A stretch of DNA of 64,000 nucleotides, from NCBI RefSeq assembly GCF_057098645.1, contig NZ_CM169472.1, one strand, 5' to 3'. The stretch's first letter is position 1. Every line of letters starts with the position of its first letter. This document shows positions 1 through 45,949 of this stretch, piece after piece. Position numbers and translations under genes: made by a program. The notes beneath the pieces were generated by a model. That model was given only the letters and a program-made list of their open reading frames with translations. It was not told where the DNA came from and ran no database searches.

Positions 1-133
1 TCTTTGAAGAAGCGCCACAAGCCTATAAATCGGCTGAAAGCGTGGTGCAATGTCTGGTGCAGGCCGGATTAATTATTCCTGTCGCGCGGCTGCGTCCGGT
101 GCTAACGCTCAAAAACAGTGGAGGGAAAAAAGG

Positions 134-748
134 ATGATCTTGCTACAACTCTCCTCTGCTCAGGGGCCGGAAGAATGTTGTCTCGCAGTGAAAAAGGCGC
201 TGGACAGGCTGATTAAAGAAGCTGCTCGACAAGACGTCGTGGTAACAGTGCTGGAAACAGAAACAGGTCGTTACTCTGACACGCTGCGTTCGGCGCTGAT
301 TTCTCTGGATGGCGACAACGCATGGGCGTTAAGCGAAAGTTGGTGCGGCACTATTCAGTGGATTTGTCCGAGTCCGTATCGGCCTCATCATGGGCGCAAA
401 AACTGGTTTCTGGGCATTGGGCGTTTTACCGCTGATGAGCAGGAGCAATCCGATGCGATCCGGTATGAGACGCTGCGTTCGTCGGGGCCGGGTGGTCAAC
501 ATGTCAATAAAACCGACTCGGCGGTACGCGCCACGCATTTGGCATCCGGTATTAGCGTGAAGGTTCAGTCAGAACGCAGTCAGCATGCTAACAAGCGGCT
601 GGCACGATTGCTGATTGCCTGGAAGCTGGAGCAACAGCAACAGGAAAATAGCGCAGTGCGGAAATCGCAGCGGCGAATGTTCCATCACCAGATTGAACGT
701 GGCAACCCGCGACGAACGTTCACAGGGATGGCTTTTATCGAAGGATAA
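134..748 (+). CDS. prfH: Peptide chain release factor homolog PrfH (204 aa), start taken at MILLQLSS within the longer ORF
   Basis: ORF track 50..748; translation contains the GGQ peptidyl-hydrolase motif ([15 protein letters not shown]) and matches the PrfH N-terminus from the internal ATG at 134. Confidence 0.8.
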
Positions 749-770
749 TGAAGGATGAAACTGCCGGAAG

Positions 771-801
771 GCGATTAAACGCCATCCGGCAGCAAATCAA
801 A
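771..801. terminator. Imperfect hairpin between convergent prfH and pepD, putative bidirectional terminator
   Basis: ctgccggaaggcg ... cgccatccggcag inverted repeat (one mismatch) seen directly between the two stop codons. Confidence 0.4.
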
Positions 802-804
802 TAA

Positions 805-2262
805 TTACTTCGCCGGAATTTCTTTCAGCAGTTCAGTCAGCAGTGTCCAGTAATGAGCTACGCTTTCGATGTGAACTTGCTCATCCGGAGAGTGTGGACC
901 GGTGATTGTTGGCCCGATAGAAACCATGTCCATTTCCGGATACGGTTTTTTGAACAGACCACATTCCAGGCCCGCGTGGATAATCTGGATGTTCGGCGTC
1001 TTGTTGAACAGGCGCTGATAGGTTTCACGTACCAGATGCATCACCGGAGAATTAGCGTCCGGCTGCCAGCCAGGATATGCGCCTTTTGCTTCGGTTTTCG
1101 CGCCAGCCAGTTTACCCAGCGAATCCAGCATGCTCACCACGTAGTCTTTACCGCTGTCGATCAGAGAACGGATCAGGCAGTGAATTTCTACGTTATTGTC
1201 AGTCATGGTCACCACACCGACGTTCAGGGAGGTTTCGACCACACCTTTTGCCACGTCGGAATTGCGGATCACACCGTTCGGGGTGGCGTTCAGCAGACGA
1301 ATAAAGGTATCGCGAGATTTCGCAATCAGGGCAGCTTTATCGTTCGCTACAGAGTCCAGCAACAAGGCCAGATTTTTCTCTTTCTCTGCCAGCTCGTTTT
1401 TCAGGATCTCCTGATAGGTATTCACCAGAGATTTCAGGGCGTCGACTTTATCAGCTGCGACAGCAATGGTCGCAAAGGCTTCACGCGGGATGGCGTTACG
1501 CAGTGTGCCGCCGTTGAAATCAATAAGACGCAGATCCAGTTCTTCTGCATGACCCGCCAGGAAGCGCACCAGCAGTTTGTTGGCATTACCCAGGCCAACG
1601 TGGATTTCACCGCCGGAGTGACCGCCTTTCAGACCTTTTAAGGTTAACTTGAAGGTTTCAAAACCAGCTGGAACCGCTTCACGATCTAAATGCAGGTTGG
1701 AGGTGAAGTCGATACCCCCCGCACAACCCATGTAGATTTCACCTTCTTCTTCGGAGTCGGTGTTAATCAGAATATCAGCCTGCAACCAGTTGCTCTGTAA
1801 GCCGAACGCACCGTCCATACCGGCTTCTTCGGTCATGGTCAGCAGCACTTCCAGCGGGCCGTGAACCACGTTTTCGTCAGCCAGAACCGCCAGCGCAGAG
1901 GCCATACCAATGCCGTTATCCGCACCCAGTGTGGTGCCGCGCGCTTTAACCCATTCGCCATCAATATAAGGCTGGATAGGATCTTTCGTGAAGTCATGCA
2001 CGGTGTCGTTATTTTTCTGCGGCACCATATCGAGGTGGGCCTGTAAGACGACCGGTTTACGATTTTCCATACCTGCTGTAGCAGGTTTACGAATCAGGAT
2101 ATTACCTACCTGATCGCGTTCGACATGGAAACCTTTCTCTTTTGCCCAACCAACAATGTATTCAGCGAGTTGCTCTTCATGATAGGACGGGTGAGGAATA
2201 GAACAGATTTTGGCAAAAATATCCCACAGCGGTTGTGGAGATAATTGAGACAGTTCAGACAC
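805..2262 (-). CDS. pepD: Cytosol non-specific dipeptidase / aminoacyl-histidine dipeptidase PepD (485 aa)
   Basis: ORF track 805..2262; full-length match to E. coli PepD (MSELSQLSPQPLWDIFAKICSIPHPSYHEEQLAEY...). Confidence 0.95.
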   Translation of the reverse strand: MSELSQLSPQPLWDIFAKICSIPHPSYHEEQLAEYIVGWAKEKGFHVERDQVGNILIRKPATAGMENRKPVVLQAHLDMVPQKNNDTVHDFTKDPIQPYIDGEWVKARGTTLGADNGIGMASALAVLADENVVHGPLEVLLTMTEEAGMDGAFGLQSNWLQADILINTDSEEEGEIYMGCAGGIDFTSNLHLDREAVPAGFETFKLTLKGLKGGHSGGEIHVGLGNANKLLVRFLAGHAEELDLRLIDFNGGTLRNAIPREAFATIAVAADKVDALKSLVNTYQEILKNELAEKEKNLALLLDSVANDKAALIAKSRDTFIRLLNATPNGVIRNSDVAKGVVETSLNVGVVTMTDNNVEIHCLIRSLIDSGKDYVVSMLDSLGKLAGAKTEAKGAYPGWQPDANSPVMHLVRETYQRLFNKTPNIQIIHAGLECGLFKKPYPEMDMVSIGPTITGPHSPDEQVHIESVAHYWTLLTELLKEIPAK

Positions 2263-2522
2263 GTTAAGTCTCCTTGTCGATCACCCGCAAAACAGTATTG
2301 CAGGTCACAGGGTTAGCAGAAAATGTTGTCAACACAAGACAGGCTTGCGAGATATGTTTGAGAATACCACTTTATCCCGCGTCAGGGAGAGGCAGTGCGT
2401 AAAAAGACGCGGACTCATGTGAAATACTGGTTTTTAGTGCGCCAGATCTCTATAATCTCGCGCAACCTATTTTCCCCTCGAACACTTTTTAAGCCGTAGA
2501 TAAACAGGCTGGGACACTTCAC

Positions 2523-2981
2523 ATGAGCGAAAAATACATCGTCACCTGGGACATGTTGCAGATCCATGCACGTAAACTCGCAAGCCGACTGATGCCTTCT
2601 GAACAATGGAAAGGCATTATTGCCGTAAGCCGTGGCGGTCTGGTACCGGGTGCGTTACTGGCGCGTGAACTGGGTATTCGTCATGTCGATACCGTTTGTA
2701 TTTCCAGCTACGATCACGACAACCAGCGCGAGCTTAAAGTGCTGAAACGCGCAGAAGGCGATGGCGAAGGCTTCATCGTTATTGATGACCTGGTGGATAC
2801 CGGTGGTACTGCGGTTGCGATTCGTGAAATGTATCCAAAAGCGCACTTTGTCACCATCTTTGCAAAACCGGCTGGTCGTCCGCTGGTTGATGATTATGTT
2901 GTTGATATCCCGCAAGATACCTGGATCGAACAGCCGTGGGATATGGGCGTCGTATTCGTCCCGCCAATCTCCGGTCGCTAA
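2523..2981 (+). CDS. gpt: Xanthine-guanine phosphoribosyltransferase (152 aa)
   Basis: ORF track; [23 protein letters not shown]... with PRPP-binding motif [11 protein letters not shown]. Confidence 0.95.
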
Positions 2982-2988
2982 TCTTTTC

Positions 2989-3020
2989 AACGCCTGGCAT
3001 TGCCGGGCGTTGTTCTTTTT
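2989..3020 (+). terminator. Rho-independent terminator downstream of gpt
   Basis: GC hairpin aacgcctggca/tgccgggcgtt followed by ttgttcttttt. Confidence 0.5.
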
Positions 3021-3072
3021 AACTTCAGGCAGGTTACAATAGTTTCCAGTAAGTATTCTGGAGGCTGCATCC

Positions 3073-4317
3073 ATGACACAGGCAAACCTGAGCGAAACCC
3101 TGTTCAAACCCCGCTTTAAACATCCTGAAACCTCGACGCTAGTCCGCCGCTTTAATCACGGCGCACAACCGCCTGTGCAGTCGGCCCTTGATGGTAAAAC
3201 CATCCCTCACTGGTATCGCATGATTAACCGTCTGATGTGGATCTGGCGCGGCATTGACCCACGCGAAATCCTCGACGTCCAGGCGCGTATTGTGATGAGC
3301 GATGCCGAACGTACCGACGATGATTTATACGATACGGTAATTGGCTACCGCGGCGGCAACTGGATTTATGAGTGGGCCACCCAGGCGATGGTGTGGCAAC
3401 AAAAAGCCTGTGCGGAAGAAGATCCGCAACTCAGTGGTCGTCACTGGCTGCATGCGGCTACGTTGTACAACATTGCCGCCTATCCTCATCTGAAAGGAGA
3501 TGACCTGGCCGAGCAAGCGCAGGCTTTGTCAAACCGCGCCTATGAAGAGGCCGCTCAGCGTCTGCCGGGCACGATGCGGCAGATGGAGTTTACCGTACCC
3601 GGCGGTGCGCCCATCACCGGCTTTTTGCATATGCCAAAAGGTGATGGCCCGTTTCCAACGGTTCTTATGTGCGGTGGCCTGGATGCAATGCAAACGGATA
3701 ACTACAGCCTGTATGAGCGATATTTTGCGCCACGTGGCATTGCAATGTTGACCATTGATATGCCCTCGGTGGGGTTTTCGTCAAAATGGAAGTTAACGCA
3801 GGATTCCAGCATGCTGCACCAGCATGTATTAAAAGCGCTGCCTAACGTACCGTGGGTGGATCACACTCGCGTCGCGGCCTTTGGTTTCCGTTTCGGCGCT
3901 AACGTTGCCGTGCGTCTGGCATACCTTGAATCGCCGCGTCTGAAAGCGGTTGCCTGTCTTGGTCCGGTAGTTCATACCCTGTTGAGTGATTTTAAGTGCC
4001 AGCAACAGGTGCCGGAAATGTATCTTGACGTTCTGGCCAGTCGTTTGGGGATGCATGATGCTTCCGACGAAGCGTTGCGTGTTGAGCTGAATCGCTACTC
4101 ATTAAAAGTGCAAGGATTGCTGGGGCGTCGTTGCCCAACGCCAATGTTATCAGGCTACTGGAAGAACGATCCGTTTAGCCCGGAAGAGGATTCACGTTTA
4201 ATCACGTCGTCATCTGCTGATGGTAAATTATTAGAGATTCCGTTTAACCCCGTGTATCGGAATTTTGACAAGGCGCTTCAGGAAATCACTAACTGGATCG
4301 AAAAGCGATTGTGTTAA
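3073..4317 (+). CDS. frsA: Esterase FrsA (fermentation/respiration switch protein, 414 aa)
   Basis: ORF track; [27 protein letters not shown]... alpha/beta hydrolase family, full length. Confidence 0.95.
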
Positions 4318-11214: not shown

Positions 11215-11480
11215 TCAACAGGAAGAATACATCCCTAAGCGGTTAATGCTGGCGTAATCAATAGACCAGCATTAATCACAGATGATTACCAATCAGACAG
11301 AAATGGTTAAATCGTCGAATTCATATTTAATACGTTTTCTTATGCCGCTGAACAGCTTGAAAAGGATGCATATTTTAAATATCAGTGAAATGAACAGTTT
11401 ATTGCCGTTATTAATAGAAATGGAGGGATAAATACGCGTATTCTACTGTTGCAACAAAAACAACGATATTGATCGGTTTT
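11215..11480 (-). repeat. Decayed paralogous copy of the rpmJ2 3' end plus downstream hairpin region plus ykgR-like small ORF (internal deletion), homologous to 29860..30000 and 30680..30767/32100..32140
   Basis: Direct comparison within the window: acaggaaga(a)tacatcc...aatgctgg...attaat...tcgtcgaatt...acgtttt(t)tcttat/acg..ctgaac and ggatgcatattttaaatatca(g/c)tgaa(a/g)tgaacagtttattgccgttattaatagaaatggag are shared by both loci. Confidence 0.55.
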
Positions 11481-35106: not shown

Positions 35107-36033
35107 ATGATGAAAATAGAGCCTTCAATTTTGCCTTCTCTTGCCTGGTTTGCGCTGATTGTTCGTGCCGGCAGTTTTTCCAGAGCCGCTTCTGAAATGG
35201 GTATTACGCGGGCCGCATTGTCTCAGAATTTAAAATCTCTTGAGGAACGTCTTAACACCAAGCTGATATACCGTACGACCCGCAATATGTCGCTTACTGA
35301 GGAAGGACAGCGTCTGTATGAAGTGCTGGTGTCGGCTTTGGGGCAAATTGATGATGTTTTGAAAGATGTTGGTGATACCCAACTTGAACCTACAGGCCTG
35401 TTGAGAATAAATTCCTCCCGTGTTGCAGCACGGATGCTTGTTGAGCCTCATATTGGCGAGTTTCTTACTCGTTACCCCAAAACAAAGATAGAACTCATTA
35501 TGGATGACGGTTTATCTAACATTATTGCGGACGGCTGTGATGTGGGCATACGTCTTGAGCAAGGACTGGATGAGCATATGACTGCCGTTCCTGTTTCTCC
35601 GCTTATTAAACTGGTTACTGTGGCATCGCCAGATTATTTAAAAGAACACGGTATTCCTGAAACGCCTCAGGAACTGAGTAACCATAATTGCCTTCGGTTG
35701 CGGCATAAAAGTAGCGGTGCACTCTCTGCATGGGAGTTTTCTAATGTTGTGGGGGGTAATGAAGAGTTCGAAATAGAGGTTTCAGGTAAGTATATTTCTA
35801 ATGATGACGAAAGCATGATACGAATGGCGCTGAATGGAACGGGTATCATTCAACATCTGGATTTTGCAATCGCTGAACATATCAATGCGGGCAAGTTACA
35901 GCCGATTCTTGAGGATTGGGCTGTTTCATTTCCTGGATTTTATATTTATGTTTCATCACGGGTGAGAATGCCCTCTAAAGTTCGTGCTTTTATTGATTTT
36001 ATGGTGGAGAAAAGAGTAAAAATAGAAAGTTAA
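35107..36033 (+). CDS. LysR-family transcriptional regulator; start at MMKIEPSILPSLAWF
   Basis: ORF track 35044..36033 trimmed; HTH FSRAASEMGITRAALSQNLKSLEERLNTKLIYRTTR. Confidence 0.8.
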   Translation: MMKIEPSILPSLAWFALIVRAGSFSRAASEMGITRAALSQNLKSLEERLNTKLIYRTTRNMSLTEEGQRLYEVLVSALGQIDDVLKDVGDTQLEPTGLLRINSSRVAARMLVEPHIGEFLTRYPKTKIELIMDDGLSNIIADGCDVGIRLEQGLDEHMTAVPVSPLIKLVTVASPDYLKEHGIPETPQELSNHNCLRLRHKSSGALSAWEFSNVVGGNEEFEIEVSGKYISNDDESMIRMALNGTGIIQHLDFAIAEHINAGKLQPILEDWAVSFPGFYIYVSSRVRMPSKVRAFIDFMVEKRVKIES

Positions 36034-36173
36034 TGTTGTGTGTCAGAATATCGGTAAGAAGAATGGCGCAATCGTGAGGATACGTTTATTCATAATAAAT
36101 CTCCTGAAAGTTTAGAATTATTTTCGATACAGCCAGATTATCATTGTTACTAATAATGTGGCTAAAATAATAG

Positions 36174-39041
<2,868 letters not shown>

Positions 39042-39480
39042 TTATCGTTCATGAGAAGCATAACGTAAAGAGAAGAGCTCGATTAGACGGCAGGATTTGT
39101 CAGGGGTTATGAACGAAATTCATAAATCTGTTTGAGTGTTGAGATGAGTAGTACAAGTTCGATATCCCCGCAATTTACAGTCCGATAAAGGAAAATGAAT
39201 ATTCATAAAAAATATATCGGTTTATCCTGGCGTATATACCTACTTCGACGTATTTCCAATAGTTGTTAATTAAAGGTAGGCCATTATTATTCACTCTGAA
39301 TAATGAATTATTCACTGTCCGCAGAGTAAAAAATATAACTTAGGTATCTATTTAATGACTTGCACAAAAAGCTAAATTTTCACCCATAAATAAAAATATA
39401 ATCCCGCGCCCAACCACCTGATGAGTGGCTACAGGCACTGGATATATTAGGTGGCGGTGTACTTTCTTACATAAAGGTAT

Positions 39481-39525
39481 TTCCTTTTCTGCGGAAAAGG
39501 AAACCGGGAAATCCCCGGTTTTTCT
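39481..39525 (+). terminator. Tandem hairpins followed by a T-run in the eaeH 5' leader, terminator or attenuator-like
   Basis: ttcctttt ctgcgg aaaaggaa (8-bp stem) directly followed by aaccggg aaatc cccggtt (7-bp stem) and ttttct, ending 67 nt upstream of the eaeH ATG. Confidence 0.4.
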
Positions 39526-39591
39526 GACAAGCAGACGCCATTATTTGTGTCTGCCTATGTTCGTTAATTCGTTCATCAGGAAATTATCTCA

Positions 39592-42500
39592 ATGTCACGT
39601 TATAAAACAGGTCATAAACAACCACGATTTCGTTATTCAGTTCTGGCCCGCTGCGTGGCGTGGGCAAATATCTCTGTTCAGGTTCTTTTTCCACTCGCAG
39701 TCACTTTTACCCCAGTAATGGCGGCACGTGCGCAGCATGCGGTTCAGCCACGGTTGAGCATGGGAAATACTACGGTAACTGCTGATAATAACGTGGAGAA
39801 AAATGTCGCGTCGTTTGCCGCAAATGCCGGGACATTTTTAAGCAGTCAGCCAGATAGCGATGCGACACGTAATTTTATTACCGGAATGGCCACCGCTAAA
39901 GCTAACCAGGAAATACAGGAGTGGCTCGGGAAATATGGTACAGCGCGCGTCAAACTGAATGTCGATAAAGATTTCTCGCTGAAGGATTCTTCGCTGGAAA
40001 TGCTTTATCCGATTTATGATACGCCGACAAATATGTTATTCACTCAGGGGGCAATACATCGTACAGACGATCGTACTCAGTCAAATATTGGTTTTGGCTG
40101 GCGTCATTTTTCAGGAAATGACTGGATGGCGGGGGTGAACACCTTTATCGACCATGATTTATCCCGTAGTCATACCCGCATTGGTGTTGGTGCGGAATAC
40201 TGGCGTGATTATTTGAAACTGAGCGCCAATGGTTATATCCGGGCTTCTGGCTGGAAAAAATCGCCGGATGTTGAGGATTATCAGGAACGCCCGGCGAATG
40301 GCTGGGATATTCGTGCTGAGGGCTATTTACCCGCCTGGCCGCAGCTTGGCGCAAGCCTGATGTATGAGCAGTATTATGGCGATGAAGTCGGGCTGTTTGG
40401 CAAAGATAAACGCCAGAAAGATCCACATGCGATTACCGCTGAAGTGAATTACACGCCAGTACCTCTTCTGACCCTGAGTGCCGGGCATAAGCAGGGCAAG
40501 AGTGGTGAGAATGACACTCGCTTTGGCCTGGAAGTTAATTATCGGATTGGCGAACCTCTGCAAAAACAACTCGATACAGACAGCATTCGCGAGCGTCGGG
40601 TACTGGCAGGCAGCCGCTATGACCTGGTTGAGCGTAATAACAACATCGTTCTTGAGTACCGCAAATCTGAAGTGATCCGTATTGCTCTGCCTGAGCGTAT
40701 TGAAGGTAAGGGCGGTCAGACACTTTCCCTGGGGCTTGTGGTCAGCAAAGCAACTCACGGACTGAAAAATGTGCAGTGGGAAGCGCCGTCATTACTGGCT
40801 GAAGGTGGCAAAATTACCGGTCAGGGTAGTCAGTGGCAAGTAACGCTCCCGGCTTATCGTCCAGGCAAAGACAATTATTATGCGATTTCTGCGGTTGCCT
40901 ACGATAACAAAGGCAATACCTCAAAACGCGTGCAGACAGAGGTGGTCATTACCGGAGCTGGTATGAGCGCCGATCGCACGGCGTTAACGCTTGACGGTCA
41001 GAGCCGTATTCAAATGCTTGCTAACGGTAATGAGCAAAAACCGCTGGTGCTGTCTCTGCGCGACGCCGAGGGCCAGCCAGTCACGGGCATGAAAGATCAG
41101 ATCAAGACTGAACTAGCCTTCAAACCGGCTGGAAATATTGTGACTCGTTCCCTGAAGGCCACTAAATCACAGGCAAAGCCAACACTGGGTGAGTTCACCG
41201 AAACTGAAGCAGGGGTGTATCAGTCTGTCTTTACTACCGGAACGCAGTCAGGTGAGGCAACGATTACTGTTAGCGTTGATGGCATGAGCAAAACCGTCAC
41301 TGCAGAACTGCGGGCCACGATGATGGATGTGGCAAATTCCACCCTGAGCGCTAACGAGCCGTCAGGTGACGTGGTTGCTGATGGTCAGCAAGCCTATACG
41401 TTGACGTTGATTGCGGTGGACTCCGAGGGTAATCCGGTGACGGGAGAAGCCAGCCGCTTGCGATTTGTTCCGCAAGACACTAATGGTGTAACCGTTGGTG
41501 CCATTTCGGAAATAAAACCAGGCGTTTACAGCGCCACGGTTTCTTCAACCCGTGCCGGAAACGTTGTTGTGCGTGCTTTCAGCGAGCAGTATCAGCTGGG
41601 CACATTACAACAAACGCTGAAGTTTGTTGCCGGGCCGCTTGATGCAGCACATTCGTCCATCACCCTGAATCCTGATAAACCGGTGGTTGGGGGTACAGTT
41701 ACGGCAATCTGGACGGTAAAAGATGCCTATGACAACCCTGTGACCAGCCTCACGCCGGAAGCGCCGTCATTAGCGGGTGCCGCTGCTGAAGGTTCTACGG
41801 CATCGGGCTGGACAAATAATGGTGATGGGACGTGGACTGCGCAGATTACTCTCGGCTCTACGGCGGGTGAATTAGAAGTTATGCCGAAGCTAAATGGACA
41901 GAATGCGGCAGCAAATGCGGCAAAAGTAACCGTGGTGGCTGATGCGTTATCTTCAAACCAGTCGAAAGTCTCTGTCGCAGAAGATCACGTAAAAGCCGGC
42001 GAAAGCACAACCGTGACGCTGGTGGCGAAAGATGCGCATGGCAACGCTATCAGTGGTCTTTCGTTGTCGGCAAGTTTGACGGGGACCGCCTCTGAAGGGG
42101 CGACCGTTTCCAGTTGGACCGAAAAAGGTGACGGTTCCTATGTTGCTACGTTGACTACAGGCGGAAAGACGGGCGAGCTTCGTGTCATGCCGCTCTTCAA
42201 CGGCCAGCCAGCCGCCACCGAAGCCGCGCAGTTGACGGTCATCGCCGGAGAGATGTCATCAGCGAACTCTACGCTTGTTGCGGACAATAAGGCTCCGACC
42301 GTCAAAACGACGACGGAACTCACCTTCACCGTGAAGGATGCGTACGGGAACCCGGTCACCGGGCTGAAGCCAGATGCACCAGTGTTTAGCGGTGCCGCCA
42401 GCACGGGGAGTGAGCGTCCTTCAGCAGGAAACTGGACAGAGAAAGGTAATGGGGTCTACGTGGCGACCTTAACGCTGGGATCTGCCGCGGGTCAGTTGTC

Positions 42501-43845
42501 TGTGATGCCGCGAGTGAACGGCCAAAATGCCGTTGCTCAGCCACTGGTGCTGAATGTTGCTGGTGACGCATCTAAGGCTGAGATTCGTGATATGACAGTG
42601 AAGGTTAATAACCAACTGGCTAATGGACAGTCTGCTAACCAGATAACCCTGACCGTCGTGGACAGCTATGGTAACCCGTTGCAGGGGCAAGAAGTTACGC
42701 TGACTTTACCGCAGGGTGTGACCAGCAAGACGGGGAATACAGTAACAACCAATGCGGCAGGGAAAGTGGACATTGAGCTTATGTCAACGGTTGCGGGAGA
42801 ACACAATATTTCCGCTTCGGTGAATGGTGCTCAGAAGACGGTCACGGTGAAATTCAACGCGGATGCCAGCACCGGTCAGGCAAACCTGCAGGTAGACACC
42901 GCCGTTCAAAAAGTGGCAAACGGCAAAGATGCCTTTACGCTGACGGCGACCGTTGAGGATAAAAATGGTAACCCTGTTCCAGGGAGCCTGGTGACCTTTA
43001 ATCTGCCCCGGGGTGTCAAGCCGCTTACAGGCGATAATGTCTGGGTGAAAGCCAACGATGAGGGGAAAGCAGAGTTGCAGGTGGTTTCAGTGACTGCCGG
43101 AACGTATGAGATCACGGCATCGGCAGGGAATAGCCAGCCTTCGAATACGCAGACTATAACGTTTGTAGCCGATAAGGCTACCGCAACCGTCTCCGGTATT
43201 GAGGTGATTGGCAACTATGCGCTGGCGGACGGCAAAGCCAAACAAACGTATAAAGTTACGGTGACTGATGCCAATAACAACCTGTTGAAAGATAGCGAAG
43301 TGACGCTGACTGCCAGCCCGGCTTCGTTAAACCTGGAACCGAATGGCACTGCGACAACGAATGAGCAAGGGCAGGCTATTTTCACCGCTACCACTACTGT
43401 TGCGGCGACATACACACTCAAGGCGCAAGTGAGTCAGAACAATGGTCAGGTATCAACGAAAACTGCCGAATCTAAATTCGTTGCGGATGATAAAAACGCG
43501 GTACTCACCGCATCATCTGATATGCAATCTCTGGTGGCGGATGGGAAATCGACTGCGAAGCTGGAGGTGACACTGATGTCGGCAAACAACCCCGTTGGGG
43601 GGAATATGTGGGTCGACATTCAGACGCCGGAAGGGGTGACGGAGAAGGATTATCAGTTCCTGCCGTCGAAAAATGACCATTTCGTGAGCGGAAAAATCAC
43701 GCGTAAATTTAGTACCAGCAAGCCTGGTGTCTATACGTTCACATTTAACGCCCTGACGTATGGCGGGTACGAAATGAAGCCAGTGACGGTGACCATTACC
43801 GCGGTGGATGCCGATACGGCAACGGGCGAGGAGACGATGAAATAA
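39592..43845 (+). CDS. eaeH: Intimin/invasin-family outer membrane adhesin EaeH/FdeC (1417 aa), uninterrupted
   Basis: ORF track; N-terminal inverse-autotransporter beta-barrel region followed by many Ig-like repeats (repeated ...TVTAKDAYGNPV... modules). Confidence 0.85.
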   Translation: MSRYKTGHKQPRFRYSVLARCVAWANISVQVLFPLAVTFTPVMAARAQHAVQPRLSMGNTTVTADNNVEKNVASFAANAGTFLSSQPDSDATRNFITGMATAKANQEIQEWLGKYGTARVKLNVDKDFSLKDSSLEMLYPIYDTPTNMLFTQGAIHRTDDRTQSNIGFGWRHFSGNDWMAGVNTFIDHDLSRSHTRIGVGAEYWRDYLKLSANGYIRASGWKKSPDVEDYQERPANGWDIRAEGYLPAWPQLGASLMYEQYYGDEVGLFGKDKRQKDPHAITAEVNYTPVPLLTLSAGHKQGKSGENDTRFGLEVNYRIGEPLQKQLDTDSIRERRVLAGSRYDLVERNNNIVLEYRKSEVIRIALPERIEGKGGQTLSLGLVVSKATHGLKNVQWEAPSLLAEGGKITGQGSQWQVTLPAYRPGKDNYYAISAVAYDNKGNTSKRVQTEVVITGAGMSADRTALTLDGQSRIQMLANGNEQKPLVLSLRDAEGQPVTGMKDQIKTELAFKPAGNIVTRSLKATKSQAKPTLGEFTETEAGVYQSVFTTGTQSGEATITVSVDGMSKTVTAELRATMMDVANSTLSANEPSGDVVADGQQAYTLTLIAVDSEGNPVTGEASRLRFVPQDTNGVTVGAISEIKPGVYSATVSSTRAGNVVVRAFSEQYQLGTLQQTLKFVAGPLDAAHSSITLNPDKPVVGGTVTAIWTVKDAYDNPVTSLTPEAPSLAGAAAEGSTASGWTNNGDGTWTAQITLGSTAGELEVMPKLNGQNAAANAAKVTVVADALSSNQSKVSVAEDHVKAGESTTVTLVAKDAHGNAISGLSLSASLTGTASEGATVSSWTEKGDGSYVATLTTGGKTGELRVMPLFNGQPAATEAAQLTVIAGEMSSANSTLVADNKAPTVKTTTELTFTVKDAYGNPVTGLKPDAPVFSGAASTGSERPSAGNWTEKGNGVYVATLTLGSAAGQLSVMPRVNGQNAVAQPLVLNVAGDASKAEIRDMTVKVNNQLANGQSANQITLTVVDSYGNPLQGQEVTLTLPQGVTSKTGNTVTTNAAGKVDIELMSTVAGEHNISASVNGAQKTVTVKFNADASTGQANLQVDTAVQKVANGKDAFTLTATVEDKNGNPVPGSLVTFNLPRGVKPLTGDNVWVKANDEGKAELQVVSVTAGTYEITASAGNSQPSNTQTITFVADKATATVSGIEVIGNYALADGKAKQTYKVTVTDANNNLLKDSEVTLTASPASLNLEPNGTATTNEQGQAIFTATTTVAATYTLKAQVSQNNGQVSTKTAESKFVADDKNAVLTASSDMQSLVADGKSTAKLEVTLMSANNPVGGNMWVDIQTPEGVTEKDYQFLPSKNDHFVSGKITRKFSTSKPGVYTFTFNALTYGGYEMKPVTVTITAVDADTATGEETMK

Positions 43846-43877
43846 TATTAAGAATATGAAGTAACATTCTAATAAAC

Positions 43878-43916
43878 AATAATGGCGTTGACATCTTCAA
43901 CGCCATTATTTATTGA
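43878..43916. terminator. Bidirectional rho-independent terminator between convergent eaeH and ykgA
   Basis: Perfect 14-bp inverted repeat aataatggcgttga catct tcaacgccattatt followed by tattga. Confidence 0.6.
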
Positions 43917-43964
43917 ATTGCCTGACAGTAGTCTCGTTATAAGTTCATTTAGATATAGCGACAG

Positions 43965-44855
43965 CTAAACCGGACGAACGGGGATAAAAATTTCGCAAAC
44001 AATGTTATTGCTATCAATTTCGACGAAGTTTTCATTGTAATAAAACCGCTCAATATCACTGCCGTTCACTCTGGCTAACCCCCTGGCGGGTAATTCCATC
44101 AGATAGAGGTTTCGCGCCCATTCAGGGTAGTGCTCCCACTCACCTTCATAGCGGAAAGAGGCATACAGTCCTCGGTTAATTGTCCACTCTTTCGGCATCT
44201 CTGAATCGGTTTGTTTGCATACCGTACCGGCAAAAGTTTCAACCGTGAGCAAATCGACCGATTTTGTTGACGGTTCAAACGTGGAGACGAAATAGATATC
44301 CGTCTTAAAATTATTCATACATCTGGCTAAATGATGACGTCGCAGTTTTACTTCTTCATCCGGTGATTTATTCGACACTTCAATATCATATTTAAATGAA
44401 TTGCCAAAAATAGGTGTCTCAGGAAAGTTGACTAATCTACACTCCGTCTTTTGCTGTTGACGTATTAAAAAAGAAGGGTAGATATTTGCGAGATCCCAAT
44501 AATCACGGTGGCGGTATACACGGGGAGAGCAGCCGAATAACTTTTTAAATTCGCGGCTGAATGACTGCTGTGAATCAAAATGCAAAGAGAGTGCAATATC
44601 AAGCATAGATTTCGCGGTGAGCCGGACAAGAATGGCGGCACGACAAAGCCTTCGTTTGCGAATGTATTCTCCCAAAGGCACATGCATGAAATTTCGGAAC
44701 AGAAGCTGGATGTTGCGTCTGCTGTAGCCAGATTTCTGTGCGATATCTTCGATTGAAATAGGGTGCTCAAGATTGCACTCAATCCACTCCAGGAGCTGCT
44801 GTAGAATCTTCTGCCTGATCATCACATTCTCCGTTAATTCTTTGTCATATCGCAC
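43965..44855 (-). CDS. ykgA: AraC-family transcriptional regulator with C-terminal effector (GyrI-like) domain, uninterrupted
   Basis: ORF track; AraC HTH IEDIAQKSGYSRRNIQLLFRNFMHVPLGEYIRKRRL...; position between eaeH and rclC. Confidence 0.7.
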   Translation of the reverse strand: MRYDKELTENVMIRQKILQQLLEWIECNLEHPISIEDIAQKSGYSRRNIQLLFRNFMHVPLGEYIRKRRLCRAAILVRLTAKSMLDIALSLHFDSQQSFSREFKKLFGCSPRVYRHRDYWDLANIYPSFLIRQQQKTECRLVNFPETPIFGNSFKYDIEVSNKSPDEEVKLRRHHLARCMNNFKTDIYFVSTFEPSTKSVDLLTVETFAGTVCKQTDSEMPKEWTINRGLYASFRYEGEWEHYPEWARNLYLMELPARGLARVNGSDIERFYYNENFVEIDSNNIVCEIFIPVRPV

Positions 44856-45055
44856 ATTTTCGTTATGCCCTGGGCCCTAAGTGTATCAAAAACAGCAAGG
44901 GCGAAGGCAAAAGCACTGGTAGCGTCTGCTTCGTTGTCCCCGAAAATAGAGAGGTTTCAGTCCTACATTATTAATGAATTTTTTGCATAAGTGATATCAA
45001 AATCCACATACTAATTTGAGGTTACGTTTTAACGTAGACTCATTGTTCATGCCTA

Positions 45056-45949
45056 ATGTGCCTAATGGAGGGACTGACAGTGGAATTTTCCGTATTAAGT
45101 AACAATCTGAAAATGCCGATGATGGGATTTGGTGTTTTTCAGGTTACCGATAAAAACGTGTGTAAACAGTCAGTGTTGAACGCTATCCGCACGGGTTATC
45201 GACTCATCGACACTGCAGCGGTATACGGTAATGAAGATGCTGTCGGTGAAGCCGTTCGTGAAGCCATATCCGAAGGTTTATGTACCCGAGAAGAGTTATT
45301 TATAACGTCTAAATTGTGGGTGCAGGATATGTTGAATCAGGATACGGCAGCAGCAGGTATTGAAGCATCATTAAAAAAATCGGGACTAGAATATTTCGAC
45401 CTCTATTTATTGCATCAGGCTATGCGCGATTATTTCAGTGCGTGGCGTGCACTCGAAGATGCCTATGAAGAGGGCAAATTAAAAGCGATTGGGGTTTCCA
45501 ATTTCTATCCTCATGTTCTGGCGAACTTTTGTGAAACGGTAAGAGTTAAACCGATGGTCGACCAGGTCGAGTTGCATCCCTATTTTGCCCAACCAGAGGC
45601 GCTGGCAACCATGAAGTATTATAACGTGCAGCCTGAAGCATGGGCTCCGTTAGGTGGTGGACGACATAAACCCTTTGAAAATAATCTGCTTCAGAGTATT
45701 GCAGATGCCCATCAAAAATCGATTTCTCAAGTCATTCTGCGTTGGAATATTCAACGGGGAGTGGTCGTTATTCCGAAATCGACACATCAACAGCGTATCG
45801 AAGAAAATTTTGCTATCTGGGATTTCTCACTGACAGAGAAAGAAATGGCACAAATTAGTTCGCTTGATTTGGGTTATGTTGGGGAGTCGGTAAAACATTT
45901 TAATCCTGAATTTGTTCGTGGTTGTCTTGCTGTAAAAATACATGATTGA
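45056..45949 (+). CDS. Aldo-keto reductase (paralog of 38175..39026); true start possibly the GTG at about 45076 after a ggaggg RBS
   Basis: ORF track; LKMPMMGFGVFQVTD...[14 protein letters not shown]...IGVSNF. Confidence 0.8.
   Translation: MCLMEGLTVEFSVLSNNLKMPMMGFGVFQVTDKNVCKQSVLNAIRTGYRLIDTAAVYGNEDAVGEAVREAISEGLCTREELFITSKLWVQDMLNQDTAAAGIEASLKKSGLEYFDLYLLHQAMRDYFSAWRALEDAYEEGKLKAIGVSNFYPHVLANFCETVRVKPMVDQVELHPYFAQPEALATMKYYNVQPEAWAPLGGGRHKPFENNLLQSIADAHQKSISQVILRWNIQRGVVVIPKSTHQQRIEENFAIWDFSLTEKEMAQISSLDLGYVGESVKHFNPEFVRGCLAVKIHD

Follow-up and report, generated by a model that had tools for sequence, protein, structure and literature searches.

Two neighbouring genes that are pseudogenes in Escherichia coli K-12, eaeH (fdeC, the name used here) and ykgA, are present as long open reading frames (ORFs) in a 64,000-nucleotide stretch of contig NZ_CM169472.1 (assembly GCF_057098645.1), the whole of which is called the window. 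The question raised by this locus is whether the window is exceptional in carrying an intimin-like adhesin gene and its convergent neighbour intact, or whether K-12 is exceptional in having lost them. The second reading was favoured. With a probability of roughly 95%, the window holds the ancestral, species-typical fdeC-ykgA locus of a Shiga-toxin-producing E. coli (STEC) of the O145:H28 lineage, and it is K-12 that carries a deletion. The features on which this depends are as follows.

39592..43845, + strand: fdeC (= eaeH), complete coding sequence, 1417 codons plus stop, ATG start (from the ORF listing)
43965..44822, - strand: ykgA, complete coding sequence, 285 codons plus stop, Rob-like AraC/XylS regulator
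40468..44161, strand not applicable: stretch lost in K-12 with IS3 in its place, comprising codons 293-1417 of fdeC, the spacer and codons 220-285 of ykgA (3.7 kb)

Integrity of fdeC and ykgA in the window

Both frames were checked, and no internal stop codon or frameshift was found in the fdeC and ykgA ORFs. An earlier interpretation made from the DNA letters (the sequence-only reading) had described eaeH as a single 1417-codon ORF, which agrees with the frame at 39592..43845 (+). It had also described ykgA as an ORF of 296 codons; the frame is indeed uninterrupted, but the gene itself was shortened to 285 codons by placing its start at the ATG at 44822. Since a random open frame of 1417 codons has a probability of ~(61/64)^1417, or ~1e-30, the fdeC frame is not a chance occurrence. 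A tandem-repeat scan of positions 39000-45200 returned just two trivial short repeats and no slippage-prone array in fdeC.

Base for base, fdeC was the same as the annotated fdeC of strain 95-3192 (WP_000092623.1), which the record of that strain labels 'inverse autotransporter adhesin FdeC', and ykgA was the same as its annotated helix-turn-helix gene (WP_001400523.1). Within 23 kb surrounding the locus, the window differed from 95-3192 by no more than five substitutions and a 1-nt indel, none of them inside fdeC or ykgA. An identical or nearly identical fdeC allele was present in 23 independently assembled complete genomes, so an assembly artefact is ruled out. Where serotype labels were given for these 23 genomes they were exclusively O145:H28, O145:NM or O145, and because the allele is shared with genomes of those serotypes, the window was assigned to the STEC O145:H28 lineage.

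The lesions in K-12 and BL21

In the annotation of K-12 strain HMS174, the locus consists of eaeH' (876 nt, 'missing C-terminus'), IS3 and 'ykgA (654 nt, 'missing C-terminus'), the two genes being marked as partial pseudogenes. When K-12 was compared with the window by BLAST, 39041-40467 and 44162-45095 were found to be kept at 96% identity and 40468-44161 was absent; these boundaries are accurate to a few bases, since some bases at the ends of IS3 happen to coincide with those of the flanks. K-12 keeps eaeH codons 1-292 and ykgA codons 1-219 in the same place and orientation, with IS3 between them. The retained parts of this pair (b0297/b0300) are the same DNA as in the window, from which K-12 differs by lacking 40468-44161 as well as two flanking blocks, 32736-39040 and 45096-45820. 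MG1655 has likewise been described as carrying IS3 where eaeH and ykgA meet (PMC11148124). The statement in the sequence-only reading that both genes are pseudogenes in K-12 was therefore correct by the HMS174 annotation, by BLAST and by two publications (PMC3324786, PMC11148124), and alignment with the K-12 annotation left the window genes without a frameshift and the K-12 genes not intact.

The bases flanking IS3 in K-12 are GCC on the left and TAA on the right. As there is no 3-bp target duplication, a plain insertion of IS3 is excluded, and the junction indicates either a deletion associated with IS3 or recombination of two IS3 copies. With these 3.7 kb, K-12 lost four-fifths of fdeC, from its 3' side, and 66 codons at the end of ykgA. 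Since it was K-12 that suffered the deletion, nothing has been 'restored' in the window.

In BL21(RP) (NZ_CP084683.1, 4125-5081), fdeC was cut after 957 nt with no insertion sequence (IS), and ykgA was intact (283 aa). Judged by these junctions, the K-12 and BL21 laboratory lineages lost the adhesin independently and by different events.

Frequency of the intact locus among complete genomes

The population survey covered 5426 complete E. coli genomes. The 3.7 kb deleted in K-12 was present at a coverage of at least 80% in 4595 of them and the fdeC ORF, at the same coverage, in 4570, compared with 301 genomes that had the K-12 eaeH::IS3 junction. Among the matches listed, the carriers of this junction (ER1709, PJ-T13 and K-12) are or resemble K-12 laboratory derivatives.

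Because the presence of sequence overstates intactness, 13 genomes evenly spaced down the ranking were sampled. In this sample fdeC was intact in 12 (1415-1418 codons) and ykgA in all 13 (283 or 285 codons). The remaining fdeC, in 14EC033 (NZ_CP024147.1, 725-4977), was of full-length sequence yet frameshifted, with its first stop at codon 603. The annotation name was rejected as a proxy for intactness, as the 14EC033 gene is named 'fdeC' although frameshifted. Every phylogroup in the sample had full-length fdeC; commensals such as IAI1 carried it too, as did a cryptic-clade Escherichia. On these counts the intact locus is the species norm, in ~84-85% of complete genomes, with K-12 as an outlier.

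The contrast between a K-12 pseudogene and a full-length gene in commensals and pathogens is already known, having been published in 2012 together with a prevalence of 92-100% across pathotypes at >91% identity (PMC3324786). Full-length fdeC being the E. coli default, its presence in the window carries little weight as a discovery. The practical consequence is that K-12 and BL21 are poor references for surface adhesins, and annotation transferred from K-12 would wrongly suggest a dead locus.

Selection and diversity along the locus

The ratio of non-synonymous to synonymous divergence (dN/dS) between the window allele and alleles of other phylogroups was 0.15-0.22 for fdeC and 0.15-0.27 for ykgA, values indicating that both genes are maintained by purifying selection. 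The most constrained part of fdeC was the barrel-coding region, with a dN/dS of 0.05. Constraint was weakest in the distal passenger:

42742..43842, + strand: distal hypervariable passenger, aa 1051-1417; diversity 0.09-0.16 versus ~0.02 in the barrel

Here dN/dS reached 0.31; dS, ~0.1 in the other parts, rose to 0.29. Nucleotide diversity rose five- to eight-fold from ~42744 through the 3' end of ykgA. The resulting hot spot (42742-44020; 0.09-0.18) takes in fdeC's distal third, the spacer and ykgA at its 3' end, a pattern that points to long-standing allelic classes or to recombination at the exposed adhesin tip. Diversity at the distal tip is what would be anticipated where a surface antigen is most exposed. 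For FdeC, a vaccine candidate, the allele and its hypervariable distal third bear on antigen coverage in the O145:H28 STEC lineage.

Architecture of the FdeC protein

The domains of FdeC were assigned as follows.

39592..39732, + strand: predicted Sec signal peptide, long (aa 1 to ~47), read by hand and with a hydropathy scan
39817..40662, + strand: outer-membrane beta-barrel (translocator), aa 76-357, from PF11924 and invasin/intimin structure matches
40663..43842, + strand: passenger of ~10 tandem Ig-like (Big_1/Invasin_D3) domains, aa 358-1417, from Pfam and a self-built profile
41374..42615, + strand: counterpart of the FdeC fragment crystallised as PDB 4E9L, aa 595-1008, from sequence alignment

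The N-terminus has a basic n-region, a hydrophobic core at ~aa 19-45 (mean hydropathy up to 1.9) and A-R-A preceding Q48. The Pfam model IAT_beta (PF11924) matched residues 76-350 with E=2.2e-110, over model positions 3-279 of 279, and residues 113-357 matched the barrels of invasin (4E1T, E=5e-84) and intimin (4E1S, E=3e-72). In the passenger, Pfam returned Invasin_D3 in nine stretches and Big_1 in four. The self-built profile resolved nine Ig-like repeats (501-566, 594-668, 699-771, 799-873, 900-979, 1008-1081, 1107-1182, 1210-1284 and 1314-1387); with aa 358-466, which match intimin 6TQD (an intimin-D00-like domain), these give ~10 Ig-like units. Ten Big domains have been counted for FdeC (PMC4943183). 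Residues 595-1008 aligned with 4E9L across 414 residues with no gaps, at ~96% identity (E=2.7e-249).

The full-length protein was 92.3-97.7% identical to four other alleles, above the >91% amino acid identity published for FdeC orthologues (PMC3324786); 12 other intact alleles were 1415-1418 aa long. The position of the gene, between the ykgR/reductase cluster and ykgA-rclCBA, was also conserved. With the characterised FdeC/EaeH proteins (ECOK1_0290 of IHE3034; EaeH of enterotoxigenic E. coli H10407; PDB 4E9L), the window protein shares locus, synteny and the plan of a barrel plus 10 Ig domains. It is 1417 aa long rather than 1416 and shows allelic differences only, most of them in the distal passenger (aa 1051-1417) and at the extreme C-terminus. 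The C-terminal end reads ...TGEETMK in the window, ...KGEEAMK in IAI1 and ...TEGAEEK in FDAARGOS_1260/98205 (1416-aa alleles).

By these matches the window FdeC belongs to the inverse autotransporters (type Ve secretion), the family of intimin and invasin. Intimin (Eae), encoded in the locus of enterocyte effacement (LEE), and Yersinia invasin share with it the homologous barrel and an Ig-like passenger. Compared with intimin, the FdeC passenger is much longer, and fdeC lies outside the LEE. An identification as intimin proper was rejected: the intimin model NF033627 scored 389.9 bits against a cut-off of 1400, matching residues 58-468 only, and the search with this model gave no match in FdeC to the C-terminal Tir-binding region of intimin. 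The term 'intimin-like' applies at the family level only.

Based on the literature, the Sec signal peptide would take FdeC to the periplasm, where the N-terminal barrel of the 12-stranded type (aa 76-357) would enter the outer membrane assisted by the beta-barrel assembly machinery as well as the translocation and assembly module (BAM/TAM). The rod of ~10 Ig-like domains would then be exported through the barrel to the cell surface, and FdeC exposed there would mediate adhesion. FdeC was named and its structure solved by Nesta et al. (2012), who showed adhesion and collagen binding (PMC3324786). Heinz et al. (2016) used it as a prototypical inverse autotransporter, demonstrating TAM-assisted assembly and, by pulse-labelling and proteinase K, surface exposure (PMC4943183). 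Orthologues have been shown to bind cells and to form biofilm; they also bind collagen and promote kidney colonisation (PMC3324786). The view of the sequence-only reading that the window retains a potentially functional adhesin is consistent with the purifying selection, the ~96% identity to 4E9L and the full barrel-plus-Ig architecture.

Expression, adherence and alternative explanations

Several observations speak against the favoured reading or limit it. No FdeC-specific NCBIfam model scored above its cut-off, so the orthology of FdeC rests on identity and synteny, and a search for functional literature on YkgA found none. An intact sequence is no proof that FdeC is expressed. In enterohaemorrhagic E. 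coli (EHEC), detection of FdeC was reportedly confined to 39 °C and higher (Easton 2014, cited in a later paper), and the title of the same work reports regulation by H-NS; in avian pathogenic E. coli (APEC) FdeC was found at 42 °C and not at 37 °C. Deletion of eaeH in O157 altered adherence to HEp-2 cells in SS17, where it was lost, but not in EDL933, and adherence to bovine rectoanal junction squamous epithelial (RSE) cells was unaffected in both strains. In APEC, deletion of eaeH/fdeC raised adhesion. The evidence for a role of EaeH in EHEC colonisation thus varies with the strain.

These data give some room to an alternative in which the genes are intact but cryptic, fdeC being silenced in most conditions and of little consequence for colonisation, with intimin and other adhesins dominating in a LEE-positive lineage. 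Reports that confine expression to 39 °C and higher, or to 42 °C, H-NS control as announced in the title, an AT-rich upstream region (41-43% GC), the lack of an adherence defect in EDL933 and the lack of an RSE effect in either O157 strain all fit it. It is harder to reconcile with strong purifying selection across phylogroups, including the barrel dN/dS of 0.05, and with retention of the gene in 84-85% of genomes, from which it was argued that fdeC is used somewhere in the life cycle. The loss of HEp-2 adherence by the SS17 mutant, and the kidney colonisation and collagen binding promoted by orthologues (PMC3324786), also speak against it. Cryptic genes were considered a credible but clearly less probable explanation.

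Far less probable is that the intact locus is a horizontally acquired pathogen island and K-12 the ancestral state without it. The GC content of 0.41-0.56 across the locus and flanking reductase genes that are present or absent by lineage could be taken in its favour. It is refuted by the K-12 remnants of fdeC (292 codons) and ykgA (219 codons), which stand in place and are joined by IS3 without a target duplication. Full-length fdeC in all sampled phylogroups, in the commensal IAI1 and in the cryptic clade, and the different, IS-free truncation of BL21 at the same locus, likewise oppose it. That the long ORFs are decaying pseudogenes yet to acquire a stop, or assembly artefacts, can be dismissed as scarcely credible: the one frameshifted allele among the 13 sampled (14EC033) is outweighed by a dN/dS well below 1 in every fdeC region, a frame kept at 1415-1418 aa in 12 alleles and the same allele in 23 independent complete assemblies. 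The reading of the window as the species-typical locus and K-12 as its deletion derivative was thus retained.

The region upstream of fdeC

Two features were delineated in the 230 nt upstream of fdeC.

39359..39402, + strand: candidate fdeC promoter; marbox-like 19-mer CTTGCACAAAAAGCTAAAT at 39359-39377 (1 mismatch) and TATAAT at 39397-39402
39479..39591, + strand: structured fdeC leader; hairpins at 39481-39504, at 39503-39519 followed by a U-run, and at 39530-39553

The marbox-like 19-mer is followed, 19 nt downstream, by a perfect TATAAT; no -35 element is recognisable, and the 19-mer is in what we take by convention to be the 'forward' orientation. It is one of just two single-mismatch marbox matches in the 64 kb, where matches were not enriched overall (20 versus 17.3 expected). 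Both the 19-mer and the TATAAT were invariant in 17 sequences, including that of Escherichia sp. E1V33 (cryptic clade). If transcription starts near 39409, the site is centred at ~-41, and the layout would then suit a class II Mar/Sox/Rob promoter by the geometry rule taken from PMC12052159. The MarA screen of that paper left out sites more than 200 bp from the start codon, which may explain the absence of the fdeC site, ~224 nt from the ATG. An assignment of the marbox-like site to YkgA was judged unwarranted, since the first recognition helix of YkgA differs from that of MarA/SoxS/Rob.

The sole variable part between the marbox-like site and the TATAAT is a T/C tract (39378-39396), seen as TTTTCACCC, TTTTCCCCC, TTTCCCCCC, TTTTTACCC and TTCTCACCC. 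In isolate 51243816-SK1A (NZ_OZ409596.1) the tract has a run of 10 C and is 3 nt longer, which would alter the promoter spacing; this run could be real or a homopolymer sequencing error. The supplement of the MarA screen (PMC12052159) lists a predicted marbox, TGTATCAAAAATAGC, at the K-12 ykgA core promoter, with a transcription start ~67 nt before the ATG. At the equivalent place in the window (~44874-44889, - strand) the sequence is GCTGTTTTTGATACA.

The leader had a minimum free energy of -43.1 kcal/mol (z = -5.6 versus shuffles). In the predicted fold, the U-run plus CUGA pairs with the Shine-Dalgarno (SD) sequence UCAGGAAA (39576-39583), and the second hairpin, with a GC stem and U-run, is terminator-like. 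Leader diversity (0.021) was 3-6 times below the neighbouring synonymous divergence (dS 0.07-0.13). A sharp local dip in diversity was rejected, as 0.021 equals the value in the adjacent barrel-coding DNA. In Escherichia sp. E1V33 the leader was 97.7% identical, compared with 92.4% for the whole locus. Modelled SD accessibility was 0.10 at 30 °C, 0.16 at 37 °C and 0.22 at 42 °C, a gradual change with no sharp switch and not an outlier among 14 neighbouring leaders. The leader substitutions fit the structure, and none was compensatory. A cross-species contig scan provided one informative extra leader (E1V33); besides this, it returned one contaminant contig and two chance matches. The contaminant, NZ_VLXZ01000172.1, is a 280-bp contig of Alkalicoccobacillus porphyridii (coverage 0.73) with 97.5% identity to the fdeC upstream region, and almost certainly represents E. 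coli contamination in a Bacillales assembly. An Rfam scan of the whole window gave no known RNA near fdeC or ykgA, and a search of the accessible literature found no paper tying fdeC to an RNA thermometer or to marbox-type control.

Taken together, the 230 nt upstream of fdeC might provide two layers of control, a class II marbox promoter and an SD-masking leader, a proposal regarded as doubtful. If true, the promoter layer would link the adhesin with the MarA/SoxS/Rob stress regulon or with YkgA, its Rob-like neighbour, and the leader layer could be a fourU-like RNA thermometer or an attenuator, which would explain the appearance of FdeC only at 39-42 °C. The conserved promoter and leader architecture, if real, would show how temperature gates the expression of an adhesin that is broadly conserved.

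Start codon and paralogy of YkgA

The gene convergent with fdeC, ykgA, encodes a Rob-like regulator with a double helix-turn-helix (HTH) DNA-binding domain and a GyrI-like ligand-binding domain.

44823..44855, - strand: in-frame extension 5' of ykgA (GTG at 44855), probably non-coding 5' untranslated region
44505-44822, - strand: YkgA N-terminal double HTH, aa 1-106, from Pfam HTH_18 and HTH_AraC
43974-44444, - strand: YkgA C-terminal GyrI-like domain, aa 127-283, from Pfam GyrI-like

The longest ykgA ORF (43965..44855, - strand) has 296 codons and begins with GTG. Five lines of evidence argue for the shorter gene of 285 codons. An invariant GGAG, inside the 11-codon extension, precedes the ATG at 44822 by 6 nt; all five substitutions among alleles in these 11 codons were non-synonymous; the GTG is TTG in one allele; the Prokaryotic Genome Annotation Pipeline (PGAP) places the start at the ATG in every genome inspected; and the Rob profile alignment begins at residue 3-5 of the 285-aa YkgA. 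Translation almost certainly begins at 44822 (ATG) and not at 44855 (GTG).

With Rob, of the MarA/SoxS/Rob group (7VWY/1D5Y), YkgA shares the two-domain plan and aligned from end to end, its residues 5-283 with 5-288 of 289. In the second recognition helix the two are near-identical (FDSQQSFSREFKK in YkgA, FDSQQTFTRAFKK in Rob), whereas the first differs, with SRRNIQLLF in YkgA and SKWHLQRMF in Rob (the MarA/SoxS/Rob type being SKW[HY]LQRMF). From the MarA-DNA structure, the differing positions are presumably those reading the GCAC half-site in MarA/Rob. An identification as Rob itself was rejected, since the RobA equivalog models scored 195.2 versus a cut-off of 380 bits and 173.2 versus 426 bits; YkgA is best described as a Rob paralogue, not Rob. 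The gene was intact and under purifying selection even where the divergent reductase gene is lost.

Other elements of the window

The remaining features are listed below.

43878..43910, strand not applicable: hairpin with a 14-bp stem between convergent fdeC and ykgA, candidate bidirectional terminator (consensus scan)
22089..28882, - strand: ecpRABCDE common-pilus operon, all six genes intact
45080..45949, + strand: aldo/keto reductase gene divergent from ykgA; a 129-nt remnant in K-12, BL21 and IAI1

The hairpin is likely to be a bidirectional terminator. A single-base deletion relative to 95-3192 lies at ~43858 in the fdeC-ykgA spacer, 13 nt past the fdeC stop and before the hairpin.

The sequence-only reading had noted an intact ecp pilus operon, and all six genes are indeed intact in the window. 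It had further singled out the combination of an intact adhesin with ecp; the combination is present but is not distinctive of this strain, the ecp genes examined being intact in K-12 too. There, ecpR, ecpA and ecpB are annotated as intact, as is the portion of ecpC within the compared stretch, and we assume the whole operon to be intact in MG1655. FdeC plus the common pilus is the default E. coli repertoire, a point that bears on the weight of the sequence-only reading and not on its accuracy.

The first flanking block (32736-39040, 6.3 kb) carries a flavin oxidoreductase and an alpha/beta hydrolase, together with two LysR regulators and two aldo/keto reductases; most of a third aldo/keto reductase makes up the second (45096-45820, 0.7 kb). 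K-12, BL21 and IAI1 lack both blocks, as do many further strains in which fdeC is kept. The K-12 remnants of the blocks, of 90 nt and 129 nt, are presumably ykgP and ykgQ. Because the breakpoints are common to many strains with an intact fdeC, such as IAI1, they are older lineage polymorphisms unrelated to the IS3 event.

An IS2 copy of 1331 bp (30769-32099) lies inside ykgR, a small membrane protein gene, with a 5-bp target duplication, TCTAC (30764-30768/32100-32104). It is not at this site in 95-3192, and none of the complete genomes in the collection matched both junctions as one piece. At 55157-56465 there is a 1309-bp IS3-family element, which we take to be IS629-like, with two ORFs, terminal repeats beginning TGAACCGCCCCGGG and an ALIL (apical loop-internal loop) frameshift pseudoknot at 56015-56131. 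It replaces 1508 bp of 95-3192, namely 711 nt at the 5' end of hyxB, an autotransporter gene, and almost the whole of hyxA, and by this comparison represents an IS-adjacent deletion. Only its left junction is common to some O145:H28 relatives.

Two further genes, ykgL (29706-29931, 226 nt) and paoB (18526-19481, 956 nt), are frameshifted in the window and likewise in 95-3192, whereas K-12 and BL21 each have an intact ykgL. Part of the ykgR region is present a second time at ~11363-11479, ~19 kb from the real ykgR and 91% identical over 117 nt; the annotation of 95-3192 treats this copy as a partial ykgR pseudogene.

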